DNA from: an archaeon
GTDB lineage: Archaea; Nanobdellota; Nanobdellia; Woesearchaeales; GW2011-AR9
Direction of reading: 5' to 3'
NCBI GenBank assembly: GCA_023259115.1
Contig: JAHFQW010000001.1
Coordinates: forward strand, 81,937 to 145,936
Length of the DNA: 64,000 bases
How positions within the stretch are numbered: position 1 is the stretch's first letter; every line of letters begins with the position of its first letter. Shown here one piece after another: positions 28,047-63,063 of the stretch. The notes below the pieces were generated by a model. That model was given only the letters and a program-made list of their open reading frames with translations. It searched no databases and was not told the origin of the DNA. The translations under genes and the position numbers were made by a program.

Positions 28047-28050
28047 AGGT

Positions 28051-28096
28051 ATAGATAACTGCGCAAGTTATATCACATTTGGCGCAGTTATCTAAT
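28051..28096 (+). repeat. Intergenic hairpin repeat, TAGATAA-stem/ACATTTG-loop/TTATCTAATA family
   Basis: ATAGATAACTGCGC-aagttatatcacatttg-GCGCAGTTATCTAATA forms a 12-bp perfect stem. Lies 5 nt after the gpmI stop. Confidence 0.55.
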
Positions 28097-28099
28097 ACA

Positions 28100-28460
28100 A
28101 GAAAATAAATAAACGATTTATTTTCCACAAGACAAAACCGCGATTTTGTCTGTGCACAAATAGGATAGTTTTCCTATTTTGTGTGTACAGAAATACGATC
28201 GTTTTCGTATTTCTTGTAAGTAAACTGCGTGCATAATGTAGTGAAATTCGCAAGAAATGGAACAAAATGTTGCGAATTTCAATATATAAATGAGTTTGAA
28301 TAACTATATCCGATTCAATGAAAATGCAAAAACCATTTTCAAGAGTAAAAATCACCTCAAGTGTTCAAATAGGCAAGTGATTTTTACTTGTCAAACTCAT
28401 TTAAGAAGAACTTTGAATTGATAAAATAAAATATTATTCAAAGTTCTCTATAAAAATTGC
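28100..28460 (+). repeat. Array of at least 6 consecutive unrelated perfect hairpins (stems 7-11 bp) in a 650-nt intergenic region
   Basis: GACAAAA/TTTTGTC. AAATAGGA/TCCTATTT. AGAAATACGA/TCGTATTTCT. GAAATTCGCAA/TTGCGAATTTC. GTAAAAATCAC/GTGATTTTTAC. GAACTTTGAA/TTCAAAGTTC. Confidence 0.5.
28344..28389 (+). repeat. AGTAAAAATC...GATTTTTACT hairpin repeat (copy 2)
   Basis: AGTAAAAATCAC-loop-GTGATTTTTACT, an 11-bp stem. Related to 19926-19987. Confidence 0.45.
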
Positions 28461-28742
28461 CTGGAATGTTCGATTTCTAGGGTAATTTACTATATGATAT
28501 TTGCTGTAAATAGGATTTGCTACAAGTAACGCAGTTTACTATAATATTGTTTAAATGTTTTGCGGTTTTCGGGAAGTTTCTTATTGATTACTATCAAGTG
28601 ATTATTTTTAAGAAAGATTTATAAATGCAGCTTATTTTTGAGGGGATATGGTTTCCGCTCAGTTAATGATAGTACAGTTGTATGTGGTGGTAGAAGAATA
28701 TTTAGGACTGGAAAATGAGAATGTTATTGTTACGAGGATATT

Positions 28743-31373: not shown

Positions 31374-31776
31374 AAATAAATAAAATCTTAATTTTATTTT
31401 ACTCTTCTTTTTTGTCTTCTTCTGGGAAAAAAGAGTCAAGCTTTTTACACTTCTGCTGTGCGTTATAAGAAATTTTTGTCATGAAAATCTATCACCTCTT
31501 TTTTCTAACATCTACCAAATGTTAGAAAGAAATGTTGATATATAAAGACTGTTGATTTGTAAACTATAGTCTTGATTGCGATACCACTTGGAAAATGAAA
31601 AAGGGATTTGTTACTTGATAATGTGTGGTGAGTAAGGGAAATAATTAGATGTTTTGTGTTTGATGTGTTTGGGAAAAGATATTGATTAAAACATTTGAGC
31701 AGAGGGGTCTTGTTTGGGATATATAATTGTTGAGAAGTTTGGTTAATTCATATTTTTAGTTAAATTCCTCTATTGT

Positions 31777-32795: not shown

Positions 32796-34157
32796 TTAGA
32801 GTTTATATCCTAGAGTTTTTACTGCGTTCATAAAAGGGATTTTTGTGTTTTCATCAATTAATCCTTCATCTTGGAACCATCTTAATGACTCGCGTCCGTT
32901 TCCCTGATGTCCAAGGCATAAGAAAAATATTTCTTTTGTTTTCTCATCGCGTGAAGAAATGGAGCTCTGGTAACTTTGTTTAATGTTAATTCTCTTAGTG
33001 AGGGTGTTTATACCAATGAGATCTTGCAGAGCGAGACTACGGAATCCATACACTTCTTTTTCAAATTCACAGAAGAGGGGTGTGTAATATAAAATGGCTT
33101 GGCTCATCTGTTTTTGTTCTCTAGGAGAACAGTTATTTGCTTCAAATTCAAATAGTGAGTTTAGTATTTCTATAAAATTATCTAGAGGCATACTTCTTTT
33201 TTGTTCTAGGGTCATGTGATAGGCAATTTTATGTATTGCTCTTTGGTATTCTCCTCCTAGGTTCCAACTCCCTCTATTAAATTTTGCATCAAATAAACGG
33301 AGACCATATTGTTGTTCGGTGGGTGATGTTGTAAATTCATCTTTTTCTAATATGGTTCCTACGGTGGGTGCAACAAGATCATTGACAATTCTCTCGGAAA
33401 AATCTACGATGTTATGCCCCATAGATCTTGTGTGTTGATACATAATTCGGGCATATTCGAATAGTGCGGGGTTAGAGAGTATTATTTCAGCAAAAGGTAA
33501 TTTTTCTAATGCTTGGGCAAAATCTTGATAGATCTCTTTACCATCCAGTTGTTTTCTGAGGATCCATTCTGCATATTCTAATGCCTCTTTTTTTGAAGCT
33601 GATTTAATGGTGTAATGGTTTTGTGAGAGAAGGGTAGAATTTGGACGTGAAGTGAGTAATATACGATTTTGGTTTAGTGTTTTTTGAATGAAATCTAGGG
33701 TTTGTTGCCGAGATTTTACATCAAATATTTCATCTAGTCCATCGAGAATGATGAGGGGGTCTTTTTGTTCTACGAGTTGTTGATATTTTTGAGGTTGTTC
33801 ATCAAGAATAGACAAAGTGACTTTAGAGAGATGGTCATATAATTCTGGAAGAGATTGAATAGAGGCGAAGTGTTCATCAAGACGGATGAAGAGAGGTGTT
33901 ACTTTGTGTTGAAAGGGAGAATATCCTTCCTGTGCTTGGTACGCAAGATGTTTTGCGACAACGCTTTTGCCTGAGCCACCATCACCAACTAAAATGTTAA
34001 TGCCGGTTTCAATTAATTTTTCTTCATTTACTTCATTTTTTGCTGTATCTTGGAGTATTGGCTTAAGAAAAGGCATGCATTTGCCAAGATAGAGGGGATG
34101 AGGAACACTTTTGTATTGTTGTGCTAATAAACTTAATTTTAGTTCGAGTTGTTGCAT
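32796..34157 (-). CDS. NACHT-type STAND P-loop NTPase
   Basis: Walker A GDGGSGKS. Walker B hhhhDGLDE (LIILDGLDE). Downstream LLTSRP sensor-like motif. ~250 aa C-terminal helical region. No recognisable N-terminal effector domain. Confidence 0.55.
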   Translation of the reverse strand: MQQLELKLSLLAQQYKSVPHPLYLGKCMPFLKPILQDTAKNEVNEEKLIETGINILVGDGGSGKSVVAKHLAYQAQEGYSPFQHKVTPLFIRLDEHFASIQSLPELYDHLSKVTLSILDEQPQKYQQLVEQKDPLIILDGLDEIFDVKSRQQTLDFIQKTLNQNRILLTSRPNSTLLSQNHYTIKSASKKEALEYAEWILRKQLDGKEIYQDFAQALEKLPFAEIILSNPALFEYARIMYQHTRSMGHNIVDFSERIVNDLVAPTVGTILEKDEFTTSPTEQQYGLRLFDAKFNRGSWNLGGEYQRAIHKIAYHMTLEQKRSMPLDNFIEILNSLFEFEANNCSPREQKQMSQAILYYTPLFCEFEKEVYGFRSLALQDLIGINTLTKRINIKQSYQSSISSRDEKTKEIFFLCLGHQGNGRESLRWFQDEGLIDENTKIPFMNAVKTLGYKL

Positions 34158-40301: not shown

Positions 40302-40329
40302 AAGTACGAAATATTCGTATATTTGGTTA

Positions 40330-40470
40330 TATAGTAATGGTGAATAGTTTTCGAATTCGAGTCACTCCGTTCGTGACTTTGCTAAAGCAAAGCTTTGTTC
40401 ACCATTACTAATAAGTAAATGTGTAGATTAATATTCGATTATTTTACACATTTACTATATTATTCAGTAT
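40330..40470 (+). terminator. Nested palindromic structure in intergenic region (AGTAATGGTGAA...TTCACCATTACT enclosing AGTCAC...GTGACT and TTTGCTAAAGCAAA. Then TAAATGTGTA...TACACATTTA)
   Basis: Multiple perfect inverted repeats read directly from sequence downstream of the FAD-oxidoreductase gene. Confidence 0.35.
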
Positions 40471-40474
40471 AGAA

Positions 40475-41389: not shown

Positions 41390-42253
41390 TTGTTTCTTGC
41401 TCTTATGAGAAGAGGATGTTTATGGTTACTGGGGTTATTGCTGTTTATAGTGGGATGTAGTTCTATTCATAATTATTTGAATAGTTCTCTTGATAAAAAT
41501 ACTTTTGTTGTGAATGATTCAGTGGCAAGTTCTGTAATTTCTGCGGGTGATGTTTCTACGAGGAATGTTTCGGTTAATGAAACGCAGATTACTACGCAGA
41601 TTACTATTAAAGAGAGTATAGATAATTCTGTGGGTTATAATACATTTTGTACAGAATTATCTAATAAGACAATTCTGAATAGTTGTCATATAAGTAACAG
41701 AATTGTCTATAATATTACTGTTTGTTCTGCGCAATGGGTTTGTTTGAACTCAAAGACGAAAATATATAGGGTACAAAATTGTAGTTTTACGCAACGAGTG
41801 GATTGCAAGTTTGGGTGTAAGAATGATTCTTGTGCGATTGCACCAGTATGCAAGGCGGGGTGGAATTGTGATGGAAACTATTATCGTGGGTATCGAATGG
41901 AGAGTTGTGAATTTATAAAGAGGGAAAAATGTGAGTTTGGTTGTAGAGAGGGTGATTGTTCGGTTGAGGTTGTTGAAAATACATCAACAATTATTGTTAA
42001 AACGGGAGTGGAGGAGGCAAGGCCGGCGTTGGCAACGCTTAATTCTGGTGATATGGTCTTGTTGAAGAATCATAATGTGACTATTTATACGATGACGGAT
42101 GAACAAGTAATTCTGATTATCGATGGGAGGAAAAGCAATCTACTCAAGGAAGGTGAGAGTGTTACGCGTGATGATTTGACGATTGTGGTGGAAGAGATTT
42201 TATTTCAAGCGTATGGGGAAGGAAAGAAGATGATTAGTTATACGGTTACATGA
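41390..42253 (+). CDS. Secreted Cys-rich protein carrying the 97-nt in-frame repeat element
   Basis: N-terminal hydrophobic signal/lipobox-like segment (LWLLGLLLFIVGCSS). More than 20 Cys. Contains IDNSVGYNTFCTELSNKTILNSCHISNRIVYN encoded by the repeat at 41617-41713. Confidence 0.5.
   Translation: MFLALMRRGCLWLLGLLLFIVGCSSIHNYLNSSLDKNTFVVNDSVASSVISAGDVSTRNVSVNETQITTQITIKESIDNSVGYNTFCTELSNKTILNSCHISNRIVYNITVCSAQWVCLNSKTKIYRVQNCSFTQRVDCKFGCKNDSCAIAPVCKAGWNCDGNYYRGYRMESCEFIKREKCEFGCREGDCSVEVVENTSTIIVKTGVEEARPALATLNSGDMVLLKNHNVTIYTMTDEQVILIIDGRKSNLLKEGESVTRDDLTIVVEEILFQAYGEGKKMISYTVT
41617..41713 (+). mobile_element. 97-nt AT-rich palindromic repeat element, copy A (in frame inside 41390..42253)
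   Basis: Over 95% nucleotide identity with 48623-48719 and 57203-57299 while flanks are unrelated. Internal inverted repeats CAGAATT/AATTCTG and GACAATTCTG/CAGAATTGTC. GC far below the host gene. Confidence 0.6.
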
Positions 42254-42867: not shown

Positions 42868-43365
42868 ATGGTTTCAAGAAGCTCGGGTTTAGTTCAATAT
42901 TCTGGCGATTTTCATCATTTAGTACTGCGTGATCTTGAGAGATTTTATGAGTTATCTCATTTTTCTTCAGGTAGTTCTAGGTTGGAAGATTATAAAGGGT
43001 CTCAATTCATGTCCGCCTCTTTTTTATTTCATCATCCCTCACATGGTTTCTTCAAGTCGGGTAGTACTTCTGATTTTAATTCAAATCTTGAAGATGTATT
43101 GGGATTGTTTTCTTCTTATTTTAATGCGCATGGAAATACAGAGAAGATATTGGGGGATTATGGTGCTCTTTCTCTTTTAAAATTATTACCTACTGTATCA
43201 CAGAGCTTAAATCTTACTTTAGATGAAAAGATGGAGATGTATGTTAAACGGTTTGATGATAATATGATTCAGTTTGCTTCGTTTGGTTTAGAATATACCC
43301 CTAAGCTAAATGTAGCAAAAGGGACAAGAGGGATATTATATGGACAGATTACTCTGTTTGGATAA
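42868..43365 (+). CDS. Hypothetical protein
   Basis: ORF only. Confidence 0.3.
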   Translation: MVSRSSGLVQYSGDFHHLVLRDLERFYELSHFSSGSSRLEDYKGSQFMSASFLFHHPSHGFFKSGSTSDFNSNLEDVLGLFSSYFNAHGNTEKILGDYGALSLLKLLPTVSQSLNLTLDEKMEMYVKRFDDNMIQFASFGLEYTPKLNVAKGTRGILYGQITLFG

Positions 43366-43435
43366 TTACTGTTGTATCTATATCTCTTCTTTATATCTTT
43401 CTTCTTTAAATGTGTGTGAAATCTATGTGTTAAAG

Positions 43436-43487
43436 TATAGATAATTCTGCAGATTAGATTACATTTGGCAGAATTATCTAATATAAC
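43436..43487 (+). repeat. Intergenic hairpin repeat, same family
   Basis: TATAGATAATTCTGC-agattagattacatttg-GCAGAATTATCTAATATAAC. Flanks and loop are conserved. Stem hexamer is changed with compensating change relative to the 28051 copy. Confidence 0.55.
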
Positions 43488-43594
43488 GAAGGACACAAAT
43501 AATCAATAAAATAGTTGTGTCCTTCGAATATAGTAAGTGATATTTGTATAAATATTTAGGTCACTTACTATAAGTAAATTCTGTCGATAATGAT

Positions 43595-43642
43595 TATCAA
43601 ATATAATACCAAAAATTAGCATAATTAACAGAATTTACTATA
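43595..43642 (+). repeat. Module-2 repeat (TATCAAATATAATACCAAAAATTAGCATAATTAACAGAATTTACTATA)
   Basis: ~90% identical to 63694-63740. Abuts the stop of the 43625..44548 minus-strand gene. Confidence 0.5.
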
Positions 43643-44548
43643 ATTTCCTGCTCTGTCAAATACGTAATGTTTTAGATCAATCCATTGTTTTAATGCGGTA
43701 TATATCTCTTTTTGGTGTTGTGTTTTGAGATGAGATAGTCCCTCTTGGTATAGTTTTTCTGCTTTTTTTTCAAGGGTTATCATTATTTCCTGTCTGGTTT
43801 TTGGTGTGTTTCCTTGTTCTTTTATTTTCAATACGGGGTACGTAGGGGTATTATTTTTAAGATCTTCATTGAGGTCTATCATGTCATCAAGTAATTTTAA
43901 GTAGCCGCCGAGATTATAGATGGCATGGATGGTGTTCTTATCGTTGGATTTCTGAGAATATTGTGCGATTACTGCAGGAATTAAGAAGCAGCATCCACCC
44001 ACTTCTATGGCATGATCTATTGATTGTTCTAAATCAGTATTTTTACTTTCTTCAATAATGGCAATTACTGTTCTTTCATATATCTCTTTTAGAGAGGGGA
44101 GAGATTGGTTTTTATGATATTGTTGGTAGGAGTATTCTGCTTGGCTTAGAACGATTTTTCTCTCGATGTCAGTTGTGGTTTTTGTTCTTCCTTCAAACAT
44201 GACATCCATGATACTTTCTAAGAATTGCTGGGATTCTTTTGGCGTCATTTTTTCTTGGTCGATGATGTTATCTGCACGATCGTTGAGAGTGGCGTAGAGG
44301 ATGTTTCTTTTGATGATTTCTGTGGATTGTTTTTTTTGAGGTGCTTGTGAATGGAGAAGTTCATATATTTTTACACCCAGAACGCCGGTAAATTGAAATG
44401 CGAGGGTGCTTTTGCTTTTCTGAAAGTGTTGGCCTAACGCATCAGCGGGGTATTGTTGGTTGAGAAATTTTGTTTGTTCTTCTATGAATTCGTGTACTAT
44501 TTTTTTTGCGCAGAGGGCTTCAAGTCCAAGGGAGAGGAATTGGTTCAT
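43625..44548 (-). CDS. Hypothetical protein (possible all-helical isoprenoid-synthase-like fold)
   Basis: ORF with an Asp-rich DDMIDLNED segment reminiscent of DDxxD motifs. Weak. Confidence 0.3.
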   Translation of the reverse strand: MNQFLSLGLEALCAKKIVHEFIEEQTKFLNQQYPADALGQHFQKSKSTLAFQFTGVLGVKIYELLHSQAPQKKQSTEIIKRNILYATLNDRADNIIDQEKMTPKESQQFLESIMDVMFEGRTKTTTDIERKIVLSQAEYSYQQYHKNQSLPSLKEIYERTVIAIIEESKNTDLEQSIDHAIEVGGCCFLIPAVIAQYSQKSNDKNTIHAIYNLGGYLKLLDDMIDLNEDLKNNTPTYPVLKIKEQGNTPKTRQEIMITLEKKAEKLYQEGLSHLKTQHQKEIYTALKQWIDLKHYVFDRAGNYSKFC

Positions 44549-48140: not shown

Positions 48141-51100
48141 TTGGTTGTTGAGAGCGGTTTTGCGATGAAGAAGGTGGTTTTATTATTGTTGGTACTCTTG
48201 GTTTCTTTTTCTATTGTGTATGCTGCTGATGTGCATGTTGATGCGAAGGTGCAGGAGGCGTTGGTGCATGGTTCAAATGCGTCGGTGATTGTGGTGCTCA
48301 AGCATTCTTCAAGTGCCGTGGCTGATTTAGGTTTAGAGAGTGCAGGGGCTGATGATGAGATGGTTGCTTCTGTTGGTGGTGGTGATGGTAGTAATAGATT
48401 TAGGGGTTTGAGAGGCACTCGCGTTTTAAAAGAGGTGGAATTACGTGAGGAGCGTCAAAAACAGGAAGCGAGAGTTGTAGAAGAAAATGTACTTGGGGGG
48501 TTACGAGTGCGAGAAGAGGGGATAGTGAAAAACTCGATGAATAACTCAGTGACAAATTTAGTGACAAACTCAGAGAAAAGTTTGGGGAATAGTTCAGGGT
48601 TGGATGTTGAGGATGTAGTTAGTATAGATGATTCTGTGGGTTATAATACATTTTGTACAGAATTATCTAATAAGACAATTCTGAATAGTTGTCATATCAG
48701 TAACAGAATTGTCTATAATGATACTTATGATATTGCGCTACGTACACGATATAATTTATTTAATGGATTTAGCGGTGATGTGACGGCAGAGGGATTGAAA
48801 AAATTGCAGGAAAATTCACAAGTTGAGAGTGTGTATCTGGATGAGGAGCGGCATGTGTTTTTAACGGATTCGGTGCCGCAGATTAATGCAAATAAAGTGT
48901 GGAATTTTTCGCTGAGTCATTATAATATTACAGGTGTTGGGGAAACGGTGTGTGTGGTTGATACGGGTATCAATTATAGCCATAGTGGATTAGGTGGAGG
49001 ATTAGGTATTCGAGTGATTGATGGATATGATTTTGTGAATTCAGATACAGATCCGGCAGATGATCATGGCCATGGTACGCATGTGGCAGGAATTATTGGT
49101 TCAAATGATAGTGTGTATAGAGGTGTTGCACCGGGAGTTAAATTTGTGGCGTTGAAAGCGTGTAATTCAGGTGGCTCATGTAGTGATTCTAATGTGTTGT
49201 CAAGTATTAGTTGGTGTATTGATAATTCAACTATCTATAATATCTCGGTGATTAGTATTAGTTTAGGCGGGGGTCAATATACGAGTTATTGCGACAATGA
49301 TGTGAATTCGCAGTATCATTCGTTGATTGGTCAGGCGGTAGGGAAGAATATCAGTGTGGTTATTGCAACGGGGAATACGGGAAGCACGTATACCAATAAT
49401 ACAGGAGGTATTGCGGCGCCGGCGTGTATCCAGAATGCGACACGAGTAAGTGCGGTGGATAAATCGGATGTGATGGCGAGTTATGCGTTTCGGCATTTTA
49501 ATTTTACAGATATTATTGCAGCGCCCGGGAGTTCTATTACGTCGTTATCGTATACAGGTGGAACGACGACGTTATCGGGTACATCGATGTCGACACCGCA
49601 TGTGTCAGGAGCTGTTGCGTTGATGCGGCAGTATTGGCGATTAGCATATACGCAGACGCCGTCGGTTAGTTTTGTGACAAATAAGATTCTCAAGACGGGA
49701 GTTTCTATTGATGATACGGGAAGTGGATCTACGTTGATAATTCCTCGTGTTAATATATTGGCGTTGCTACAGCCATTCATTAATTATACCACGACGAGCG
49801 TGGTAAATGGATCGGTGCGTAATGTGAATACGGCGTTGATTAACATTAGTTCAGATGTGAATTTAAGCTCTGCGTTGTTGGAGTGGCATTATAATAATGG
49901 GACGATTCGCAATATTTCGATGAGTTCTTTTAATGGTACGAGTTATTCTTTAACGCTTGGCAATTTGGCGGATGGGACGGATTTTTATGAGGTATATGGG
50001 AATGATACCGCGAATACGTTTGGGCAAATAAGTATTCGTAATATTACCGTTGATGCAACGGTGCCGGCAGTTACGGTTGTAAATCCAGCGAATGGCACAA
50101 ATATGAGTAGTGGTAGCGCAGCGTTTAATGCGACGGTTTTGGAGAAGAATATTGATAGTGTATTATTTAGTTTTGATAATGTGACGGGAAGCGGGGTGGC
50201 GTTTAATGTGACGGCAACGAATAGCAGCGGCAATTGGAATGCGAATGTGGATTTGACGCGGTTGAAGGAAGGTAGGCATGTGATGAATGTACTGGCAAAT
50301 GATACGGCAGGGAATTATAATAGGTCTTCAATTGTGCAATTTGTGGTGGATAGAACGGCGCCGAATGTGACGGTTATTATACCGTTTTCTAATCGTAATT
50401 TCACGTTGAGTTCAGGCAATCAGACGTTTAATGTTTCATTGCGGGAGAGTTTGTTAACGGTAGATTCAGTTATTTTTAGTTTTGATAATGCGAGTGGTGT
50501 GAATTTTAATGTGACGGCGCAGAATAATTCAGGGTATTGGGCTGTATCTTATAATGTGTCGAGTTTAGCTGAAGGGAGCCATACGATGACGGTGCTTGCT
50601 AATGATACGGTGGGGAATTATAATCGGACGGTAAATGTATCGTTTACGGTGGATTTTACGGTGCCAAGTGTGACGTTGAATGCGCCGAGCGCGGGAGTAG
50701 TGTTTACAATAGTATCTAGCAACCAGACGTTTAATGCAACGATTCGCGATGGTGTTAGCGGGGTGCGTGATGTGGTATTTAGTTTTGCTAATTCTACTAC
50801 GGGGTTTAATGTGACGGCGCAGAATAATTCAGGCTATTGGATTGTTTCATATAATGTTTCTACGTTGGGACATGGCAGTCATAGTATAGTGGTGTTTGCT
50901 AATGATTCAGCGGGTAATATGAATACGACAAGTTCGGTGAGTTTTACAGTGGATTTAGATACACCTCTGGCGATTTTAAATAGTCCGGTGGATTTTTTTA
51001 ATTCTTCTACGGCATTACTGGTGTTTAATTGTTCTACTTTGGATAATACCAGTTTGTTGAATGTGACGTTGTATGGAAATTGGAGCAGTGGCTGGCATGG

Positions 51101-52016
51101 GAATGTGACGACATCTATTTCGGGGAGAAATAATGAGACGACGTTTAGTCGTACACTGCTTGATGGGACATATAGGTGGAGTTGTTTAGCAGGTGATGGG
51201 CAGGGTAATGTAGGGTTTGCGAGCAGTAATTATACGATTACAGTGGATACAGTATATCCGTTGATTACGTCTGTGAGTTCGGGAAGTCCCACTTCATCTG
51301 CGGCGACAATTACGTGGACGACAAGTGAGGGGGGGAATGCGAGTGTGGATTATGGTGTAGATACGTCTTTAGGTTCGCGCAGCTCGAGTTTGACGTTTAG
51401 TACTTCGCATAGTGTGGGGTTGTCTGGCTTGACTGCTTCAACTACGTATTATTATAATGTGACGAGTTGTGATGCTTCGGGGAATTGTAATACGACTGGT
51501 ATGAATTCTTTTACGACAGCGTCTTCTGGTGGAAGTGGCAGTAGTAGTTCTTCGTCTGGTGGCGGTGGCGGAGGAGGAGGCGGGGGTGGAGGTGGTGGTG
51601 GTTCTTCGAGTAAGATTGCAGCGGCTGTTACAACAACACCTGTCAAAATTGAAACTCCTGTTGCAAAAGAACCTAGTGCGCCAGCAGCAGAGAGCGGGGG
51701 AGCTGGAGCTGCAGTGAGTGTGCTTTCAGATGGTGGAAGTAGCAGGGGAGAGAGCAAGAATGAGATAGCTGCGGCGTTAGGGCAAGATAAAGGTTCGACT
51801 AATTTGGCAGGAAATGCTGCGAGTGTGGGTCAGAGTTCTACGAGTTCACGTTTGGCGCTAGCAGGAAGGGCGTTCTTTCAGAGCGGAGTACAATTATTTA
51901 AGAATAAAGTAGTATTAGGTGTGATGGTTGTAATTGTGGGATTATTGATTATTATTTTATCTTTATTGTCCTGGAGAAGAAAGAATGAAGTGGCGAAGCA
52001 GGGGTTTGGGTTTTGA
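48141..52016 (+). CDS. Subtilisin-like serine protease (S8) with long N-glycosylation-sequon-rich Ig-like tandem repeats, poly-Gly and Thr/Pro linker and C-terminal TM anchor
   Basis: Catalytic triad blocks VCVVDTGIN (Asp), HGHGTHVAGII (His), GTSMSTPHVSGA (Ser). N-terminal signal peptide. At least 3 tandem ~85-aa repeats (FNVTAQNNSGYW...VLANDT.GNYN...FTVD). GGGGGGGGGGGGGGG tract. C-terminal hydrophobic helix plus RRKN tail. Contains the 97-nt repeat at 48623-48719. Confidence 0.8.
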   Translation: MVVESGFAMKKVVLLLLVLLVSFSIVYAADVHVDAKVQEALVHGSNASVIVVLKHSSSAVADLGLESAGADDEMVASVGGGDGSNRFRGLRGTRVLKEVELREERQKQEARVVEENVLGGLRVREEGIVKNSMNNSVTNLVTNSEKSLGNSSGLDVEDVVSIDDSVGYNTFCTELSNKTILNSCHISNRIVYNDTYDIALRTRYNLFNGFSGDVTAEGLKKLQENSQVESVYLDEERHVFLTDSVPQINANKVWNFSLSHYNITGVGETVCVVDTGINYSHSGLGGGLGIRVIDGYDFVNSDTDPADDHGHGTHVAGIIGSNDSVYRGVAPGVKFVALKACNSGGSCSDSNVLSSISWCIDNSTIYNISVISISLGGGQYTSYCDNDVNSQYHSLIGQAVGKNISVVIATGNTGSTYTNNTGGIAAPACIQNATRVSAVDKSDVMASYAFRHFNFTDIIAAPGSSITSLSYTGGTTTLSGTSMSTPHVSGAVALMRQYWRLAYTQTPSVSFVTNKILKTGVSIDDTGSGSTLIIPRVNILALLQPFINYTTTSVVNGSVRNVNTALINISSDVNLSSALLEWHYNNGTIRNISMSSFNGTSYSLTLGNLADGTDFYEVYGNDTANTFGQISIRNITVDATVPAVTVVNPANGTNMSSGSAAFNATVLEKNIDSVLFSFDNVTGSGVAFNVTATNSSGNWNANVDLTRLKEGRHVMNVLANDTAGNYNRSSIVQFVVDRTAPNVTVIIPFSNRNFTLSSGNQTFNVSLRESLLTVDSVIFSFDNASGVNFNVTAQNNSGYWAVSYNVSSLAEGSHTMTVLANDTVGNYNRTVNVSFTVDFTVPSVTLNAPSAGVVFTIVSSNQTFNATIRDGVSGVRDVVFSFANSTTGFNVTAQNNSGYWIVSYNVSTLGHGSHSIVVFANDSAGNMNTTSSVSFTVDLDTPLAILNSPVDFFNSSTALLVFNCSTLDNTSLLNVTLYGNWSSGWHGNVTTSISGRNNETTFSRTLLDGTYRWSCLAGDGQGNVGFASSNYTITVDTVYPLITSVSSGSPTSSAATITWTTSEGGNASVDYGVDTSLGSRSSSLTFSTSHSVGLSGLTASTTYYYNVTSCDASGNCNTTGMNSFTTASSGGSGSSSSSSGGGGGGGGGGGGGGGSSSKIAAAVTTTPVKIETPVAKEPSAPAAESGGAGAAVSVLSDGGSSRGESKNEIAAALGQDKGSTNLAGNAASVGQSSTSSRLALAGRAFFQSGVQLFKNKVVLGVMVVIVGLLIIILSLLSWRRKNEVAKQGFGF
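48623..48719 (+). mobile_element. 97-nt palindromic repeat element, copy B (in frame inside subtilase 48141..52016)
   Basis: See copy A. Confidence 0.6.
51556..51603 (+). repeat. GGN microsatellite encoding a poly-Gly tract inside the subtilase gene
   Basis: GGTGGCGGTGGCGGAGGAGGAGGCGGGGGTGGAGGTGGTGGTGGT encodes 15 consecutive Gly. Confidence 0.6.
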
Positions 52017-52085
52017 GTGGGAAGAGGGAAAGTTTTGGGCAGTTATGTGTAATTTTCAAAATCAATTTTAGTGAAAGGAAAAATT

Positions 52086-53015
52086 CTACTGAAGGCCCAA
52101 TAAATTTGCTGAGTTGCTATGAAATAACTTTTCTTGGAGTTCTTCATCTCTATCACAAGCTAACTTTATCATCTTTATAGAAGTTTTACGATCACCATAT
52201 GGCCAATCTGATGCAAACAAAACTCTTTCAGAGCCAAACGCATTTACTAATTCTTTTATTTTCTCTGGCGATTGAAAAGAAGTATCAACATAAGCATTAT
52301 CATATTTTGGAAGTGTCTCGATAACTTCTCTCACCTCAATTCCTCCTGCATGACCAACAATAAATCTTACATTTGGAAAATCGGCTATCAATTGTTCTGC
52401 TTGAGAAATATTTCCATTTTTTGGTTCTTGTTTACTCTTTTCTTTTCCATGATAATATGATGTAACTCCACTATGAAACAAGACAGGAAGATTATAAACT
52501 GAAAAGATTTCAATTCCTTCTCGTAATCTTCTATCAGATAAAGAAACTTTTTGTATTATTGGATGTAACTTCATTCCTTTTGCTCCTCTTTGAACTTGAT
52601 GAGCTAAAGTTTTTTCAAGATCATATTCTCGGGTGAAGTCAATCCCGGTAAAAGGAATTATTCTTTCATCATTCGCTTCTTTTATATCTTCAAAAGTAAC
52701 ATATGGAGGAATTGGTAAACAACATGTTTGAGTTACACCTGATGCATCTAATGATTTCTGCATATTCTCAACTGACGCAACGAAATTTCTTTGTCTATTG
52801 GAATATGTACCCCATTCACGAATAAGATTGTGGGGTTGTTTACCTCTATGCCTATAATGAATTAAAGCTGCATAAAAACCAGCATCAAATAAATTTCTTA
52901 ACTTAAATCCAGTATCAAAAAGATTCCTATCAGGTAAACTTTTTTCATGAATTACATGACCGCCACAATCATATAATATATCTCCTAAGTGTGTATGGAC
53001 ATCAATGATTTTCAT
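52086..53015 (-). CDS. Metal-dependent amidohydrolase family protein (TIM-barrel, amidohydrolase_2-like)
   Basis: N-terminal MKIIDVHTHLGD (HxH metal-binding start). Downstream His/Asp positions consistent with the family. Confidence 0.5.
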   Translation of the reverse strand: MKIIDVHTHLGDILYDCGGHVIHEKSLPDRNLFDTGFKLRNLFDAGFYAALIHYRHRGKQPHNLIREWGTYSNRQRNFVASVENMQKSLDASGVTQTCCLPIPPYVTFEDIKEANDERIIPFTGIDFTREYDLEKTLAHQVQRGAKGMKLHPIIQKVSLSDRRLREGIEIFSVYNLPVLFHSGVTSYYHGKEKSKQEPKNGNISQAEQLIADFPNVRFIVGHAGGIEVREVIETLPKYDNAYVDTSFQSPEKIKELVNAFGSERVLFASDWPYGDRKTSIKMIKLACDRDEELQEKLFHSNSANLLGLQ

Positions 53016-53211
53016 TTTATATTGATATTAGGTCTTCTTTAAATATTTAACTCTTAAACAAGAGTTCTCTATCGCTTATTGGCTTAACTTTAGATTTCTG
53101 AAAACTTGCTCCGCTGATGCTAGGCACCCAGATGTGAAGTCTGGAACATATAACCTCATATACATTTTCTTTTAAGGAAAATTTAAATAGATGATTTGCT
53201 AGAAGAATTTT

Positions 53212-53460
53212 ATGTCTCAACAAATTGCCATTGGCGTGGTGCACACAGTGTCAGTCGATTTGAGAAAAGCTCTGACTTCCTCTTCAGCGGTCCGAGATGC
53301 ATGGAATGGTCTTACCCCACTTGCTCGCAATGAGTGGATTTGCTGGATTACTTCTGTTAAGAAATTGGAGACACGTAGAGATCATATACACCGATTATGT
53401 AAAGATATTTTAGAGGGAAAACGCCGACCGTGTTGTTGGCCAGGTTGTCCTCATCGTTGA
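53212..53460 (+). CDS. YdeI/OmpD-associated family small protein
   Basis: ...RNEWICWITSVKKLETRRDHIHRL resembles the YdeI (PF13376) W-I..AK..ETR..RI block. Locally higher GC than neighbours. Confidence 0.4.
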   Translation: MSQQIAIGVVHTVSVDLRKALTSSSAVRDAWNGLTPLARNEWICWITSVKKLETRRDHIHRLCKDILEGKRRPCCWPGCPHR

Positions 53461-53540
53461 AATAAATGGGTTATTCAAGGTTTTCTATAAAGATGTTGAT
53501 GTGTTAATTATATCAAAACATTTAGCTGGTAATTTCAAAC

Positions 53541-53557
53541 CGTGACAAATTGTCACG
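53541..53557 (+). promoter_or_regulatory. Perfect palindrome CGTGACAAATTGTCACG about 105 nt upstream of the speH-like gene
   Basis: 8-bp arms with a 1-nt centre. Candidate transcription-factor operator. Confidence 0.3.
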
Positions 53558-53661
53558 AGTTGGGGTTCCCTCTGTTTTAAATACTTTCTTACGTTATACA
53601 ACATAGCATTTAGGCTGGCAGAACAATAGGTTTTTAAATCTCTTCCCCCTACAATACAAAT

Positions 53662-54036
53662 ATGAAAATTGTACACCACCATCTTATATATCAAGCAAAA
53701 GTTGGCAACAATGAACTTGGTGCTGATTCTGAAAAAGTGTTCGAACAATTTCTCTACAATCTTCTCGATGAAGTTAAAATGAAATGCTTAATTCCAGTAC
53801 AACTAAAATTTAGTAATCAAAAAGCATGGACGGGTATTGTTGGAATTATCACTTCACATATCGCATTTCATTTCTGGACTATAGAGAAATATGTTCAACT
53901 CGACATCTATAGTTGTAAGCCTTTCGAAAAACAAAAAGCTGTAAAATTCTTAAATAACTTTTGGAAAGCAAGTGATGTTCGAGTACTTTTTATTGATAGA
54001 GAAGTCGGGAAGAAATTTAAAATTGAAGAATTGTAG
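53662..54036 (+). CDS. speH: S-adenosylmethionine decarboxylase proenzyme (SpeH-type, class 1b pyruvoyl enzyme) or paralogous pyruvoyl arginine decarboxylase
   Basis: ITSHIAFHFWTIEKYVQLDIYSCKPF aligns with the AESHI(S/T)IHTWPE...VDVFTCG signature containing the self-cleavage Ser. ~124 aa. Confidence 0.55.
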   Translation: MKIVHHHLIYQAKVGNNELGADSEKVFEQFLYNLLDEVKMKCLIPVQLKFSNQKAWTGIVGIITSHIAFHFWTIEKYVQLDIYSCKPFEKQKAVKFLNNFWKASDVRVLFIDREVGKKFKIEEL

Positions 54037-54235
54037 ATCAGCTAGCCTAAATATTATGCAATGGGGGGATGCTGCGTGCTCGTTGTGCAAACGAGTATTC
54101 TGATTAACTATTCTACTCTCGTTTGCTCTACTGATCTACTTAACAGCAACTGTATGGCTCGCTCATTGTAGTTGCTCTCCCAAGTGCTTTAATGTTCTGC
54201 GGGACTTAAAGCACTTCGTACAGTTGCATACGTTA
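54030..54235 (+). ncRNA. Candidate structured non-coding RNA downstream of speH
   Basis: Nested long-range pairings: AGATCAG(54036)/CTGATCT(54139). CAGCAACTGTA(54150)/TACAGTTGC(54213) enclosing a perfect 11-bp hairpin AAGTGCTTTAA...TTAAAGCACTT. Plus CTCGTT-GTGCAA-ACGAG. Confidence 0.3.
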
Positions 54236-54470
54236 ACTTTTCACTTCAACATTAGGAATAGTTGGTTTTTTGTTAGGGTTAACTTTACCAAATGCTTATA
54301 AAGGTGGATAGTTTACTCTCTGTGTTAAAAAGAGTTATTAGGAAATATATTAGAAGAGTTATTAAGAGGGCTATTAAAAGAGGTATTAGAAGAGTTCTCT
54401 ATACTTTTTTATAATCTCTAAAATATAATCTCTAAAGTAATATCAACAAAAAATAATATCTAAAAAAAGA

Positions 54471-57400
54471 GTGGTGGCTATGGGAACGGGTGGACGGAAT
54501 CATCGTTTTATTATTACGGGGTTTGTGTTAGTGTTTGCGCTCTTTGCGGTGGTGCTATATCATGAGTCTACAACTTCTTCACTTGATGTGACGGGATATG
54601 TTATTTTAGAGGATGGAGTGAGAGTGAGTACGCAGAAGATGGATAGTTCTTTGGTTACAGAGATTAGAGGGGGAGATGTGACGCCTAAAGTGGTGGTGGT
54701 CTTAGATGAGAGTGCAAGTGTGAATACTGATGGTGTAGGTGGTGGGAAAAGTCAGCAAGAATTTATTGATCAATTAAAACAAAATATTGTTGTGTCGGAT
54801 TCTTCTTCTGCGAGGAGTGGTGTTGAGGATGTGAAGAAAATAAGCAGTAGTGGGAGTAGTGGGGTTGATGGCAGTTCAGATTTTGCGTTGACACATACAT
54901 TTAGTTCTGTCTCAGCGATTGCAGGGGAAGTTACAAGTGCAGATGGGTTAGTTGAGCTGACTAAAAACAAACATGTTAGAAAAATTTTGTTAGATTATCC
55001 GGTGAGTGTGAATTTGGATAAAAGTGCATTACACATTAATGCGCCTCGTGTGTGGAATGTGACGTTGAATGGCTCAAGTGTTGATGGCCGAGGGGGGGCT
55101 GTGTGTATTATTGATACGGGTGTTGATTATGCGCATGCGGCGCTAGGTGGATGTAGTGCTGCAACGATGCAGTTGAATGGGGCAGTTGAGATGCTTTCTG
55201 TACCGGTTGAGTCAAGTCATCCGTATAGTGATACTATGGATCAGACATGGGTTATACAGCGTGAAGGATTTGAACATATGGCGCTGCATTTTTCTAAGAT
55301 TGAATTAGAGCAGATATCAAGTGCGGGGGATACGACGGATAGGGTATATGTTTATGATTCACAAAATAGGACAGTTGCTGTCTACAAAGGTATTTCAAAT
55401 GATATGTGGACGCCTTCGGTTCTAGGGGATATGATGTATGTGCGTTTGGTGTCAGATGGTTCGGTGAGTGGGTATGGATTTTCTGTTGATTCTATAATTA
55501 ATGGAACGACGAATGTGACGATGGATTGGAGCGGATGTTCTAAAGTTGTGGGGGGATATGATGTGTATAATAATGATGCGAATCCTCAAGATGATCATGG
55601 CCATGGTACGCATGTGGCGGGTATTATCGGTTCAACGGATTTGACATATAGGGGGATTGCACCAGGGGCAAACATTGTGGCATTGAAGGCGATGAGTGGT
55701 TCGGGGAGCGGTTATTCGTCTGATGTGTTGGCGGCAATGGAGTGGTGTACGAAAAATAAAGAAAAGTTTGGTATTTCGGTTATTAGTATGAGTTTAGGGT
55801 GTGATGGAGGGAGTTGTCCGCATTATCAGACTTATTGTTCGGATGATATTTTAGCAAGTGCGGTTGCAGGGGCGATTGCTAAAAATATTAGTGTGGTTGT
55901 GGCGGCAGGGAATTCAGGCTGGGTGGATGGGATTTCAAGTCCGGCGTGTATCAATGGCGTGATTCCAGTTGGTGGGGTGAATAGTGCGGATGAAATTTTG
56001 TTTAACCGTGGGAAATTGTTGCGATTGCTTGCGCCAGCGCAAGGTATTACGTCGGCAAAGTTAGCAGGGGGATTTGTGGCGTTGAGTGGTACGTCGATGG
56101 CAACTCCGCATGTTGCAGGGGCAATTTTGTTGTTGCAGGATTATGCAAAACGTGTGTATGGGCGGGAATTGACATCGGCAGAGGTGAATGTGAAGTTAAT
56201 TGAGAGTGGGAAGAAGGTGTATGATAGTAGGGTGGGGTTGAATTTTTCACGTATTGATGTATTTGCGGCAATTGGTGGAGCTGAGGGTTTGAGTGGTGTT
56301 AATAAAAATGTGTCAAATAGTTCAGCGGTTATTTTGAATGAAACAGAAAGAATTGGTGATTTAAGTTTGATTGTACTCCCTGTGAATAATAGTTATGTTT
56401 CTACTCTGTTGAATGTGAGTGTTGCTGCTCGTAGTAATGTGTCGTTGTATGGGGTGTGGTATAGTGTTTCTGGAGATAATGGGAGTGTGTTGTTGAATAA
56501 TTCAATGGTGTGGGATGTGTCGGGTGCTACTAGTTCTGTTGAGAATTATACTCTTTTTGATTCTGTTGTTGTGTCTGGTTGGAGGGAGGGGAGTTATACT
56601 TTAGCAAGTTATGTGATTGATAGGGAAGGAAAAGAGGTGTTTGTGTTTTCTACTTTTAATGTGGATAGAACATTTCCTCGTGTTGGGAATGTAGATTATA
56701 TGCCTGTTTTACTATATACAAATACGAGTGCGTTGTTTACGGTTATTGTGAATGAGAGTTCTATTGATTCTACTTTGGTTAAATTGTGGTATACGGTTAA
56801 TGGGAGTGATTGGCAGAGTGGGGTTATGAGTAAGGATATGAGTGGACGAACTTGGGGAAGTGGTGCGGGAAGTGAGGTGTATACGTATTCATTGAATTTG
56901 ACGCAGTTTGCACCAAATAGTGTGTTGCAATTTTATGTTTCAGGGAGTGATTTGGCGGGTAATGTGAATACGAGTGCGATGGGGAATGTGACGATATATG
57001 AGGGGGTGAATGCGGTTGTGGTGCCGCCGGTGAATGCGGGTGCTGCTGTGCTTACTATTACGTCTCCTTTGAATGGGTCGGTTGTTGAGGTTGGCAGTGT
57101 TATTTCTTATACTGGTGTGGTTGAGAATTTGAATGTGTCACGTGTGTTTTGGAATTTTTCTAGTGGGGGGAGTGATACTGTTTTGAGTGGTGTTACGCAG
57201 TTTATAGATAATTCTGTGGGGTATAATACCTTTTGTACAGAATTATCTAATAAGACAATTCTGAATAGTTGTTATATAAGTAACAGAATTGTCTATAATA
57301 AGACGGGAATTGTTGTGATGCAAGTATGGGTGAATGCAACAGAGGGACAATTTGCAGTGAATACAACTGTTGTTGTGAATGATACAACTGCTCCAAAAAT

Positions 57401-58076
57401 TGAGATGATGAGTTTTGCAAAAGAGATTCATCTTGGTAAAGTTAAGAGTCAACAAGTGAATGTGAGTGTGTTTGATTATTCAGGGATTTCGGCTTTAACG
57501 CTGGGGCTCAATGGAGTATTAGAGAATGGGGTGTGTTCAAAAGAGAGTAGTCGCTGGAGTTGCGGGTGGAATATGTCGAATTTGAGTTTGGGGAATGCAA
57601 CGTTAATGTTGACTGTTGCGGATGGGGCGAGTGTGGTGCATACTAATCTGACAAATTATACGTTTGTGGTGCAATCCTGTAGTGATTTTATACAAAATGG
57701 GGATGAGGCGGGAGTTGATTGTGATGGTTCTTGTGGTGCTTGTAATGGAAGTGTATCAAGTGCTAATGTGAGTGCGGTGATTGAGGCAACGCCTGTGGCT
57801 GCTGCGGTGGCAGATGTTGCTCAGTCTACGCCTGTGGTAGTGGCAGCACCTGTTGATTCTACTGTGGTGAATAAGGCAGAAGGAGTAGTACCGGTTCAGA
57901 CGGCTTCTGTGAAGAATCAGGAAGTTGGGCAGAGTGCGGATAAAAAAGAAGTTGCAAGTGCGAGTGTGGTGCAAGCAACGGATGAGAGTCAGAAAGAGGG
58001 AGTGTTGTATGTGCTAGGTTTACTGGTTGTGGTATTGAGTGGGTTGTATGTGTTTATGATGCGGGAAGGTCTGTGA
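54471..58076 (+). CDS. Second subtilisin-like serine protease (S8) with sequon-rich extracellular domains and C-terminal TM anchor
   Basis: VCIIDTGVD, HGHGTHVAGIIGS and GTSMATPHVAGA catalytic blocks. N-terminal TM/signal anchor. C-terminal Ala/Val/Pro-rich linker plus hydrophobic helix (LYVLGLLVVVLSGLYVFMM). Contains the 97-nt repeat at 57203-57299. Confidence 0.8.
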   Translation: MVAMGTGGRNHRFIITGFVLVFALFAVVLYHESTTSSLDVTGYVILEDGVRVSTQKMDSSLVTEIRGGDVTPKVVVVLDESASVNTDGVGGGKSQQEFIDQLKQNIVVSDSSSARSGVEDVKKISSSGSSGVDGSSDFALTHTFSSVSAIAGEVTSADGLVELTKNKHVRKILLDYPVSVNLDKSALHINAPRVWNVTLNGSSVDGRGGAVCIIDTGVDYAHAALGGCSAATMQLNGAVEMLSVPVESSHPYSDTMDQTWVIQREGFEHMALHFSKIELEQISSAGDTTDRVYVYDSQNRTVAVYKGISNDMWTPSVLGDMMYVRLVSDGSVSGYGFSVDSIINGTTNVTMDWSGCSKVVGGYDVYNNDANPQDDHGHGTHVAGIIGSTDLTYRGIAPGANIVALKAMSGSGSGYSSDVLAAMEWCTKNKEKFGISVISMSLGCDGGSCPHYQTYCSDDILASAVAGAIAKNISVVVAAGNSGWVDGISSPACINGVIPVGGVNSADEILFNRGKLLRLLAPAQGITSAKLAGGFVALSGTSMATPHVAGAILLLQDYAKRVYGRELTSAEVNVKLIESGKKVYDSRVGLNFSRIDVFAAIGGAEGLSGVNKNVSNSSAVILNETERIGDLSLIVLPVNNSYVSTLLNVSVAARSNVSLYGVWYSVSGDNGSVLLNNSMVWDVSGATSSVENYTLFDSVVVSGWREGSYTLASYVIDREGKEVFVFSTFNVDRTFPRVGNVDYMPVLLYTNTSALFTVIVNESSIDSTLVKLWYTVNGSDWQSGVMSKDMSGRTWGSGAGSEVYTYSLNLTQFAPNSVLQFYVSGSDLAGNVNTSAMGNVTIYEGVNAVVVPPVNAGAAVLTITSPLNGSVVEVGSVISYTGVVENLNVSRVFWNFSSGGSDTVLSGVTQFIDNSVGYNTFCTELSNKTILNSCYISNRIVYNKTGIVVMQVWVNATEGQFAVNTTVVVNDTTAPKIEMMSFAKEIHLGKVKSQQVNVSVFDYSGISALTLGLNGVLENGVCSKESSRWSCGWNMSNLSLGNATLMLTVADGASVVHTNLTNYTFVVQSCSDFIQNGDEAGVDCDGSCGACNGSVSSANVSAVIEATPVAAAVADVAQSTPVVVAAPVDSTVVNKAEGVVPVQTASVKNQEVGQSADKKEVASASVVQATDESQKEGVLYVLGLLVVVLSGLYVFMMREGL
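57203..57299 (+). mobile_element. 97-nt palindromic repeat element, copy C (in frame inside subtilase 54471..58076)
   Basis: See copy A. Confidence 0.6.
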
Positions 58077-61483: not shown

Positions 61484-61690
61484 ATGTCTACGACAATACA
61501 GGTTAATGACGATACGATGATTTTTTTGAAGAAGTTACGGTTGCAGTACGAGGCGTCTTCGTATGATGCATTGTTACAAATTCTGGTTAAAAAAGATTTG
61601 AAGCCAAAAAAGTCGTTATGGGGTGCGGGAGGGAAGATGACGATGAAAGAGATTCTGTCGGATTTGAGGGATAAACATGACCGATACTAA
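61484..61690 (+). CDS. VapB-like antitoxin (small DNA-binding partner of a PIN toxin)
   Basis: 68-aa ORF overlapping the downstream PIN gene by 14 nt. Typical TA operon architecture. Confidence 0.45.
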   Translation: MSTTIQVNDDTMIFLKKLRLQYEASSYDALLQILVKKDLKPKKSLWGAGGKMTMKEILSDLRDKHDRY

Positions 61691-62069
61691 CTCTGGAGCG
61701 GTGTCTAGGATTATTTGTCTTGATTCTTCTGCGTGGCTGGCGTATTATTTTGCTGAGAATAATGAGGTTAAAGAAATCGTTGATGGTTCTGTGCTTGTGA
61801 TGACTTCTTCATTATGTCTATTTGAGGTAAAGAAACGATTGTTAATTTTGAAAAAAGATTTTAAAGTGCTGCTTGATTTTATTAAACAGCGCGGGGAAAT
61901 AGTTTTTCCGGATGTGGTTATTGTGGAGAGAGCGGCGGAGTTTGCAGTGGAGAAGAAATTGGGAGCGATGGATGCGTTGATTTATGCAACGAGTGTTAGT
62001 TGTAGAGCGAAATTGATTAGCGGGGATAATGATTTTCGTGGTTTGGAGGGAGTGAGGATTATTTCTTGA
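61677..62069 (+). CDS. PIN-domain VapC-like toxin
   Basis: IICLDSSAWLAY (first Asp). ...MDALIYATSV... and C-terminal GDNDF acidic residues fit PIN. ~130 aa. Confidence 0.55.
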   Translation: MTDTNSGAVSRIICLDSSAWLAYYFAENNEVKEIVDGSVLVMTSSLCLFEVKKRLLILKKDFKVLLDFIKQRGEIVFPDVVIVERAAEFAVEKKLGAMDALIYATSVSCRAKLISGDNDFRGLEGVRIIS

Positions 62070-62814: not shown

Positions 62815-62823
62815 ATGTAGACG

Positions 62824-63063
62824 ATGACACTAGACGATTTTGTGGGTGCTGCACCTGATGAGGTTGGTTTACGTGCAGCTGATTTTGTGCCGTATTTTGG
62901 CAAGCGAGCGTATGAGACGCGTGTGGCACATTTACGGTTTTCTGAGAAGGCTAGGGTAATTGAGGATAGGATTGATGATTTGGGTTTTCTTCAAGGAACG
63001 TATATGACGGTTGTAGGACTTTGCGCATTTTATGTGTTATCAGTATATTTTCCTTTGAAGTGA
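62824..63063 (+). CDS. Hypothetical 79-aa protein in the position where rpl11 normally follows spt5
   Basis: ORF only. Not L11-like. C-terminal hydrophobic segment. Confidence 0.25.
   Translation: MTLDDFVGAAPDEVGLRAADFVPYFGKRAYETRVAHLRFSEKARVIEDRIDDLGFLQGTYMTVVGLCAFYVLSVYFPLK

Follow-up and report, generated by a model that had tools for sequence, protein, structure and literature searches.

We analysed 64,000 nucleotides of an archaeal chromosome (GenBank assembly GCA_023259115.1, contig JAHFQW010000001.1, forward strand, positions 81,937 to 145,936). This whole stretch is the window, and positions are counted from its first letter. Genes in the window encode Spt5 (NGN/KOW), TFS, RpoD, RpoL, ribosomal proteins S9, L13, L18e, S11, S4 and S13, the primase small subunit and archease. 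We focused on an intergenic hairpin at 43436–43487, which reads TATAGATAATTCTGC-agattagattacatttg-GCAGAATTATCTAATA. Positions 43438–43450 pair with 43468–43480 to form a perfect 13-bp stem. A composite element of the TTCTG subfamily spans 43436–43642; it begins on the left with this hairpin, H1, and ends with a second hairpin, H2. [quoted passage not shown] Family members in the window, including in-frame copies within open reading frames (ORFs), are as follows; bit scores are from a covariance model of the unit.

28050–28097, plus strand: H1 hairpin of the CTGCG subfamily, 3 nt past the stop codon of the iPGM gene.
28098–28218, plus strand: 119-nt insert (28098–28216) in the central TA, with the right-hand TA; ends CAAGAAA..TTTCTTG, four small hairpins.
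28219–28543, plus strand: H2 of the CTGCG unit, with arms AGTAAACTGCGT (28219–28230) and ACGCAGTTTACT (28529–28540), then ATA.
40329–40460, plus strand: two-hairpin unit of another subfamily, TATAG-TAATGGTGAA..TTCACCATTA-CTAATA-AGTAAATGTGTA..TACACATTTACT-ATA, between two plus-strand genes.
41617–41713, plus strand: in-frame copy (91-nt element 41619–41709 between TAs; 85.3 bits) in a 287-aa lipoprotein-like ORF, 41390–42253.
43436–43483, plus strand: H1 hairpin, the starting finding; TA and TAGATAATTCTGC, a 17-nt loop, then GCAGAATTATCTA and ATA.
43484–43572, plus strand: second two-hairpin MITE (X1 CGAAGGACACAA.., X2 TAGTAAGTGA..) that interrupts H1-H2 at its central TA.
43573–43642, plus strand: H2 hairpin, right end of the composite; AGTAAATTCTGT, a 43-nt loop, then ACAGAATTTACT and ATA.
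48620–48719, plus strand: in-frame copy in the S8 subtilase gene 48141–52016; 81.9 bits.
57203–57299, plus strand: in-frame copy in the S8 subtilase gene 54471–58076; 79.4 bits.
63420–63672, plus strand: composite MITE bounded by TATAGAGGGGTTTGATTAACC and GGTTATTCAAAGTCCTCTATA, containing a 44-nt mini-hairpin (63422–63465).
63669–63740, plus strand: deletion derivative that folds as a single long hairpin; H1 left arm joined to the H2 loop end and H2 right arm.

H1 forms the left half, and H2 the right, of a unit of 91–116 nt, TA/TAGATAA-core..core'-TTATCTA-ATA-AGTAAA-core..core'-TTTACTA/TA. The layout is TAG-ATAA-core, a loop ending ACATTTG, core'-TTAT-CTA, ATA, AG-TAAA-core, a second loop and core'-TTTA-CTA. 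Unit lengths as extracted fall in two classes, 95–97 nt and 118–121 nt, and N-TA precedes. The reverse complement of H2 aligns with H1 along the arm and ~14 nt into the loop. Hence, H2 is an inverted copy of H1, and the outer ends are imperfect terminal inverted repeats of ~27 nt (TAG.../...CTA). The H1 loop is conserved because this inverted copy includes the start of the loop. Each end of the unit can alternatively fold on an internal copy of its own first 12–13 nt. The element contains no gene; units are 91–121 nt and composites at most ~500 nt.

A first-pass annotation had matched the hairpin at 43436 to one at 28051 by their arms and loop core, and both sequences are as it described. The 28052–28094 hairpin reads TAGATAACTGCGC-17 nt-GCGCAGTTATCTA. 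It shares TAGATAA, TTATCTA and the loop end ACATTTG with the hairpin at 43436, whereas the inner hexamers are CTGCGC/GCGCAG and TTCTGC/GCAGAA, respectively. The pattern TAGATAA-N20-45-TTATCTA has four matches in the window and none in 100 shuffles. Folded as single-stranded DNA, the hairpins give z-scores of -5.8 and -6.0. Relatives of the 43438–43480 hairpin lie at 28052, 41619, 48625 and 57205, with a fused copy at 63669. The covariance model has seven plus-strand matches of at least 28 bits in the 64-kb window, in unrelated contexts. It scores 71.6 bits at 43435–43531 and 44.3 bits (E 8e-7) at 40329–40460.

The CTAA-TA-AGTAAA junction between H1 and H2 is intact in ~25 copies. It is interrupted at 43484–43570 and 28098–28216. 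The first interruption is an 87-nt two-hairpin insert with TA on each side (43482–43483 and 43571–43572), and two homologues of it occur in L063, a related locus (16119–16211 and 17977–18071). The second is also flanked by TA, at 28096–28097 and 28217–28218. In the same copy (28050–28543), the H2 loop has been enlarged to ~298 nt by nested hairpin modules; its H1 is 100% identical to that of metagenome contigs L040, L044, L047 and L055. The annotation took the copy at 63669 for a fusion. Consistent with this, 63669–63694 is 96% identical to 43436–43461 and 63690–63740 is 94% identical to 43592–43642. We read this copy as most probably the product of an internal deletion that joined H1 to H2 at a GATTA common to both. 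Nesting and internal deletion account for the mosaic build. The window holds 28 perfect stems of 10 bp or more; shuffles give 2.9. These stems cluster in six intergenic regions (28047–28742, 43366–43624, 63380–63760, 31374–31776, 40302–40474 and 54037–54470). None occurs in 28 of the 34 window intergenic regions of at least 60 nt.

Other small hairpins accompany these arrays. A second mini-hairpin family of ~26 nt, TA-CA(A)GAAA[AT]..-5/6-nt loop-..TTTC(T)TG-TA, is TA-flanked and paired inside arrays (28101–28125, 28189–28214, 63520–63545 and 63550–63575). The stem word AGTAAAAATC/GATTTTTACT is repeated in two intergenic arrays, 19807–19984 and 28344–28388, which points to what may be another shared module. 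Between copies of this word, at 19867–19894, 12 bp pair perfectly around a 4-nt loop. The annotation listed this hairpin as a loop-only relative. It is real, but the covariance model does not recognise it and the kinship is unproven.

Three copies of the element lie in frame within genes, at 41617–41713, 48623–48719 and 57203–57299. The annotation had described one such copy. Its membership of the family and its reading frame are borne out, but there are three. They are 92–100% identical over ~97 nt and have unrelated flanks. The segment is absent from six homologues (P0002–P0007) of the 287-aa protein. For the subtilases, empty sites were read from codon alignments with syntenic orthologues of 50–69% amino-acid identity. 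The syntenic loci (L061, L062, L063 and L065) hold orthologues of the flanking genes and of both subtilases. The 48141–52016 gene is 96 nt longer than its orthologues in L061, L062 and L065. Its empty site reads GTG GTT/AAT GAT (GTGGT-TA-ATGAT); the filled site reads GTA GTT AGT ATA GAT GAT...GTC TAT AAT GAT. The 54471–58076 gene is 93 nt (31 codons) longer than those in L061 and L065. Here, the empty site is CAG TTT/AAT (CAGTT-TA-AT) and the filled site is CAG TTT ATA GAT AAT...GTC TAT AAT. Both empty sites have a single TA exactly at the junction, and TA flanks TAG...CTA when the site is filled. Judged from these alignments, the pairs would be what a 2-bp target duplication of TA leaves behind, with 31 codons made up of the 91-nt element and 2 nt. 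The copies are not parts of one duplicated segment, an origin that the annotation had allowed for: their flanking sequences are unrelated, and orthologues have empty sites there.

Stop codons close five of the six reading frames of the in-frame variant. With its 19-nt H1 loop, the element and the duplication together measure 93 nt; a loop of the common 17-nt length would put the gene out of frame. In L037 and L051, this ORF-compatible variant lies between genes. Selection after insertion would be enough to explain the frame and orientation of the intragenic copies. The insertions add 31–32 residues to three exported proteins, and the 32-residue peptide holds two cysteines and an N-x-T sequon. 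A protein database search with a 41-aa query including the peptide found no proteins with shared words. In behaviour, these copies resemble the Rickettsia palindromic elements (RPEs), palindromic repeats of ~100–150 nt that sit in frame in unrelated genes and lengthen the products without disrupting them (PMC10969869). The likeness is one of behaviour only; RPEs belong to another domain of life and no sequence relationship is expected. Unlike RPEs, the archaeal element has a single ORF-compatible subfamily with one of six frames open, and three intragenic copies in 64 kb. TA duplication and DDE-type ends are also evident in the archaeal element, unlike in RPEs.

Each in-frame insertion lies directly 5' of the AAT codon that opens an N-x-T sequon (NIT, NDT and NKT at 41710–41720, 48716–48726 and 57296–57306). 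The sequons at the orthologous empty sites are NKT, NDS and NTT, and the target context is T/G-TA-AT every time. Separately, three tandem repeats of ~300 nt (67–75% identity) at 50202–50929 in one subtilase gene encode Ig-like (Big_13 / Big_3_3) domains.

Public genomes and metagenomes were scanned with TAGATAA-N-ACATTT-N-TTATCTAATA. Matches occurred in ~10 archaeal metagenome-assembled genomes (MAGs) and ~25 metagenome contigs, alongside unrelated chance matches in bacteria. The carriers are Woesearchaeota/Nanoarchaeota-like MAGs and groundwater metagenomes, and the related loci that we compared are labelled Woesearchaeota or Nanoarchaeota. In nearly all archaeal matches, H1 is followed by ATA, a second hairpin AGTAAA-core...core'-TTTACT and ATA. 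The genes beside the unit differ between genomes. Some metagenomes hold many near-identical copies, as a ~228-nt composite or as units of ~115–130 nt, with differing flanks. Contigs, including those of the window's own population, often break off at the element. Genome scans and the covariance model, the check proposed with the annotation, thus returned many more copies with varied stems. Taken together, the non-synteny, the many copies with different flanks, the homologues that lack the segment and the empty syntenic sites show that the element is mobile. The annotation's broader proposal of a multi-copy, mosaic family of the MITE or REP (repetitive extragenic palindrome) kind in an archaeal genome agrees with this nested, dispersed and stem-variable set. 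Viral contigs gave no match to the full pattern; two 14-mer scans of them gave chance matches only, none with the hairpin.

In one groundwater metagenome (L033–L036, L039, L043 and L052), H1-H2 lies inside a multi-copy ~228-nt composite of four hairpins with varying flanks. The additional hairpins are TATAG-TCGTCCAACA..TGTTGGACGA-CTAATA upstream and AACCAACTAA..TTGGTTGGTT downstream.

The element also meets genes at their ends. In L020, L022, L028, L031 and L032, several upstream ORFs extend into the element and terminate at its TAA (TAT AGA TAA) or TAG. In the window, the predicted minus-strand ORF 43625–44548 terminates inside H2 (43625–43642). Hence, elements contribute stop codons and the C-terminal codons before them. 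Insertions into the TA of a stop codon may therefore persist when oriented so that they provide a new stop.

The annotation had noted compensating stem changes between two copies. These extend much further. In 21 distinct units drawn from this window and from further genomes, pairing holds in 96% of cells and 15 of 25 pairs have changed on both sides; the outer seven H1 pairs were fixed by the search pattern in this set. None of 500 shuffles reached this level, and slid controls pair at 27–41%. However, the four arms of a unit all carry one core word, CTGCG, TTGCG, TCCCG or TTCTG. Pairing across the two hairpins (H1 5' with H2 3', and H1 3' with H2 5') holds in 94.8%, with nine of ten pairs doubly changed. 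G-U pairs make up ~5 of 523 cells, though the plus strand is rich in G and T. All arms copy one terminal-repeat word that differs between subfamilies, and the "compensatory" stem changes follow from this. The covariation is real, but it consists of four copies of one word in alternating orientation and identifies no single selected RNA fold. The annotation's inference of selection on a particular RNA or cruciform hairpin, and not on primary sequence, is not supported: cross-pairings covary equally, G-U pairs are rare and H2 is an inverted copy of H1. More generally, inverted copies of transposon ends, and not just selected RNA structure, can yield stem covariation. Beyond these cores, at least six subfamilies (window 40329–40460, L061 2995, L063 4884, L049 2539, L063 16119 and the H1-H2 types) share the frame TATAG-stem-loop(...ATTTG)-stem'-CTAATA-AG...-CTATA with unrelated stems.

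A candidate source of transposase was found for a neighbouring element. The mini-hairpin at 63422–63465 and the composite at 63420–63672 are delimited by TATAGAGGGGTTTGATTAACC and its inverted partner. Compared with the two ends, left and right, of an insertion sequence (IS) of 1.2 kb in L063 (13526–14742), these show 2–4 differences in 21 positions, in a search that allowed up to four mismatches. This IS encodes a 331-aa DUF772 and DDE_Tnp_1 transposase. Copies in L063, L067, L069 and L070 have TA on both sides (4/4). The TA directly adjoins the TAGAG...CTCTA ends in L063, L067 and L069; in L070, one extra base separates them (TA/ATAGAGG...CCTCTAT/TA). The transposase has more than 1300 close homologues, mostly on contigs of 1.2–1.9 kb. 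The source of one names it an IS5 family transposase of a Nanoarchaeota archaeon. Duplications of 2 bp are documented for elements of the IS5/IS427 group (PMC3281130, Table 2). The L063-type IS is 1.2 kb with a single 331-aa ORF, whereas members of the bacterial IS427 group are ~850 bp with a frameshifted ORF (PMC3281130). The archaeal ISs in L063, L067 and L069 agree with the hairpin elements in their outermost bases and in the TA beside them, but the inner terminal repeat of H1-H2 differs. Ends like those of H1-H2 were sought at the L070 IS and its neighbour, and none was found. No transposase domain was detected with Pfam among non-overlapping window ORFs of at least 80 aa other than 42929–43180 and 62574–62903. 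We infer that an IS5-like transposase also serves the H1-H2 type.

Near the L063 IS, at 15115–15935, is an MNT nucleotidyltransferase/HepT toxin-antitoxin pair. The same pair occurs in the window at 9058–9866.

Four of five MITE features were found: small size with no transposase gene, terminal inverted repeats, TA duplication and dispersed copies with presence/absence differences. The fifth, a cognate IS, was found for the TAGAGG-type element at 63420–63672 and not for H1-H2. The family is like DDE-derived prokaryotic MITEs, such as Sulfolobus SM elements and IS5-family or IS630-derived elements with short TA-type duplications, in being ~45–250 nt and geneless with terminal inverted repeats and a 2-bp TA duplication. 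As in prokaryotic MITEs, copies are multiple, mostly intergenic and subject to nested insertion, with an IS of matching ends for the 63420–63672 type. Unlike in usual MITEs, each end is a perfect 12–13-bp hairpin, so that the unit folds as two hairpins. Many subfamilies also retain the frame and loop motifs while the stems differ, and the host is a DPANN archaeon.

We propose the following sequence of events. The element would insert at a TA dinucleotide and duplicate it. Movement would most likely be cut-and-paste, by a DDE transposase supplied in trans from an IS5-family IS of the TA/TAG...CTA/TA type, elements that are abundant in related archaea. Presumably, a DDE enzyme of this IS5-like family also moves H1-H2, and the elements have no host function. 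New copies would prefer the central TA of existing copies, building mosaic hairpin arrays in few intergenic regions. The ORF-compatible subfamily, with its longer H1 loop and one open frame, would survive inside genes.

Several observations weigh against this model. The empty site in the 48141–52016 gene, the 96-nt case, fits only if 3 extra nt (GTA or AGT) are allowed. Strictly, a TA on each side could equally arise when a TA-ended element inserts beside a TA. No autonomous IS with TAGATAACTGCG/TAGTAAACTGCG ends appeared in the genome and metagenome scans, and H1-H2 resembles the IS5-like ends over the first 3–8 nt only (TA/TAGA.AA). A frame kept while stems differ fits more readily with an enzyme that recognises a folded structure than with a DDE transposase that is sequence-specific. 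Most MAGs hold a single strict copy, which could also suit a conserved host element. All window copies are plus-oriented (TTTACTATA 6/6), and in 18 of 25 cases across loci the gene upstream points the same way. One-way orientation is not expected of a symmetric cut-and-paste element unless there is selection after insertion; opposite orientations are present in L021.

The plus strand of the window has an extreme GC skew, +0.2 to +0.5 in 2-kb windows, that stays positive even across minus-strand genes. The sole dip, to -0.02, is at 52001–54000. At locus L008, from a related MAG, the skew is -0.27 and the element is on the G-rich strand.

Some of these observations would suit an element of the REP/REPIN kind or one like the palindrome-associated transposable elements (PATEs) of IS200/IS605. 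In such systems, a Y1 HUH enzyme, the REP-associated tyrosine transposase (RAYT) or TnpA, reads folded single-stranded DNA hairpins. Here, it would cleave by TATAG/CTATA and insert beside TA without true duplication. The inverted H1/H2 doublet is as in REPIN, and the extragenic clustering in arrays is as in bacterial interspersed mosaic elements (BIMEs). As in REP, BIME and REPIN sequences generally, the palindromes are short and a motif is conserved at the foot of the stem. Stems are almost perfect and vary freely among subfamilies while the unpaired TATAG, ATTTG, CTAATA and CTATA are kept, and window copies are all on the G-rich strand. Each subfamily may derive from a separate IS variant; otherwise, structure would be what is recognised. 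Other features count against the REP comparison. The archaeal motif lies within symmetric terminal repeats with TA on both sides, and copies occur inside genes too. IS200/IS605 ends are asymmetric; PATEs have no terminal inverted repeats, carry differing subterminal hairpins and insert 3' of a fixed tetranucleotide, whereas here the ends are inverted repeats of each other. A DDE-type IS with the same TA/TAG..CTA/TA ends occurs in relatives and matches a neighbouring hairpin element. Opposite orientations occur in L021, and no Y1 transposase (RAYT) gene was found in the window or in the annotated related loci that were fetched. As far as the termini can tell, their symmetry and the TA on both sides would favour a DDE mechanism over REP-type insertion without duplication. 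We therefore regard a Y1-type origin as unlikely.

It is equally doubtful that the sequences form a structure-defined mobile superfamily of DPANN archaea. Such a superfamily would be marked by the unpaired TATAG, loop ATTTG, CTAATA and CTATA with exchangeable stems, and moved by an enzyme that reads folded single-stranded DNA or RNA, in place of a sequence-specific DDE transposase acting on duplex ends. The 31-residue Cys cassette before N-x-T/S sequons would then have been co-opted in secreted proteases.

Still less probable, in our judgement, is a structured element with a host function across DPANN, whether a two-hairpin small RNA, a 3'-UTR stabiliser or terminator, or a DNA site for a host protein. 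The loops are conserved and the stems covary over many species, most MAGs have one strict copy, and the unit tends to sit just 3' of a co-oriented gene (in the 18 of 25 cases above), sometimes providing its stop codon. Set against this, neighbours are non-syntenic, insertions enter coding sequence and other copies, G-U pairs are nearly absent and cross-arm covariation picks out no single fold. Searched with Rfam 15, the window has no match that reaches the gathering threshold, and six unit-bearing loci have none at E<=1. The annotation's suggestion of terminator or 3'-UTR placement was not borne out. No T-run follows the hairpins, no terminator-like site was found at H1/H2, a consensus scan was at shuffle level, and hairpins occur in only 6 of 34 intergenic regions; most gene ends have none. 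An intrinsic terminator was rejected on these grounds. H/ACA and C/D box small RNAs, suggested by the ATA after each hairpin, were also rejected: judged by eye, stems of 12–13 bp and loops of 17–24 nt leave room for neither a pocket, an upper stem nor a K-turn. A replication origin, an origin recognition box (ORB) or a dif-like site was rejected because the copies are many, are not syntenic and lie inside genes too. In a diversity-generating retroelement, differences would be limited to adenines; they are not, and the three intragenic copies are near-identical.

It is scarcely credible that the intragenic copies are a conserved protein module of paralogous surface proteins with an incidental likeness to the intergenic hairpins, since the in-frame peptide with its two cysteines and sequon in three exported proteins is set against near-identical DNA with sharp boundaries, unrelated flanks and differing protein positions, orthologues that lack the segment exactly, intergenic occurrence of the same unit in L037 and L051 and the database search that found no word-sharing proteins.

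A MITE family moved by IS5-like transposases, the reading that we prefer, has consequences beyond this locus. DPANN genomes are small and known chiefly from fragmented MAGs, and hairpin MITEs help to explain contig breaks and odd gene models. DPANN is not among the archaeal MITE hosts in a 2024 review (PMC10969869). The family would be an archaeal counterpart to the RPEs, and TA/TAG...CTA/TA would be a compact marker for IS5-like transposon activity and for exchange among lineages.

Further features of the window stand apart from the element. G+C-rich hairpins (GGGCGGCACT..AGTGCCGCCC at 15324–15363, GGAAACGGCGGTTTCC and CCGTATATAAATACGG) lie in a 382-nt divergent intergenic region (15151–15532). 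They are unlike the AT-rich MITE hairpins and have no Rfam match. An intergenic block of ~140 nt (31418–31560) beside the TFS gene is ~80% identical to the syntenic region of L020. It has no Rfam match at E<=1 and may be an unannotated RNA or a promoter region. The window also encodes a PIN-domain protein (61677–62069) and a NACHT/STAND NTPase (32796–34157). Finally, a 180-nt direct repeat of 78% identity (4211–4390 and 5048–5227) duplicates the start of a 1324-aa ORF in its upstream intergenic region.

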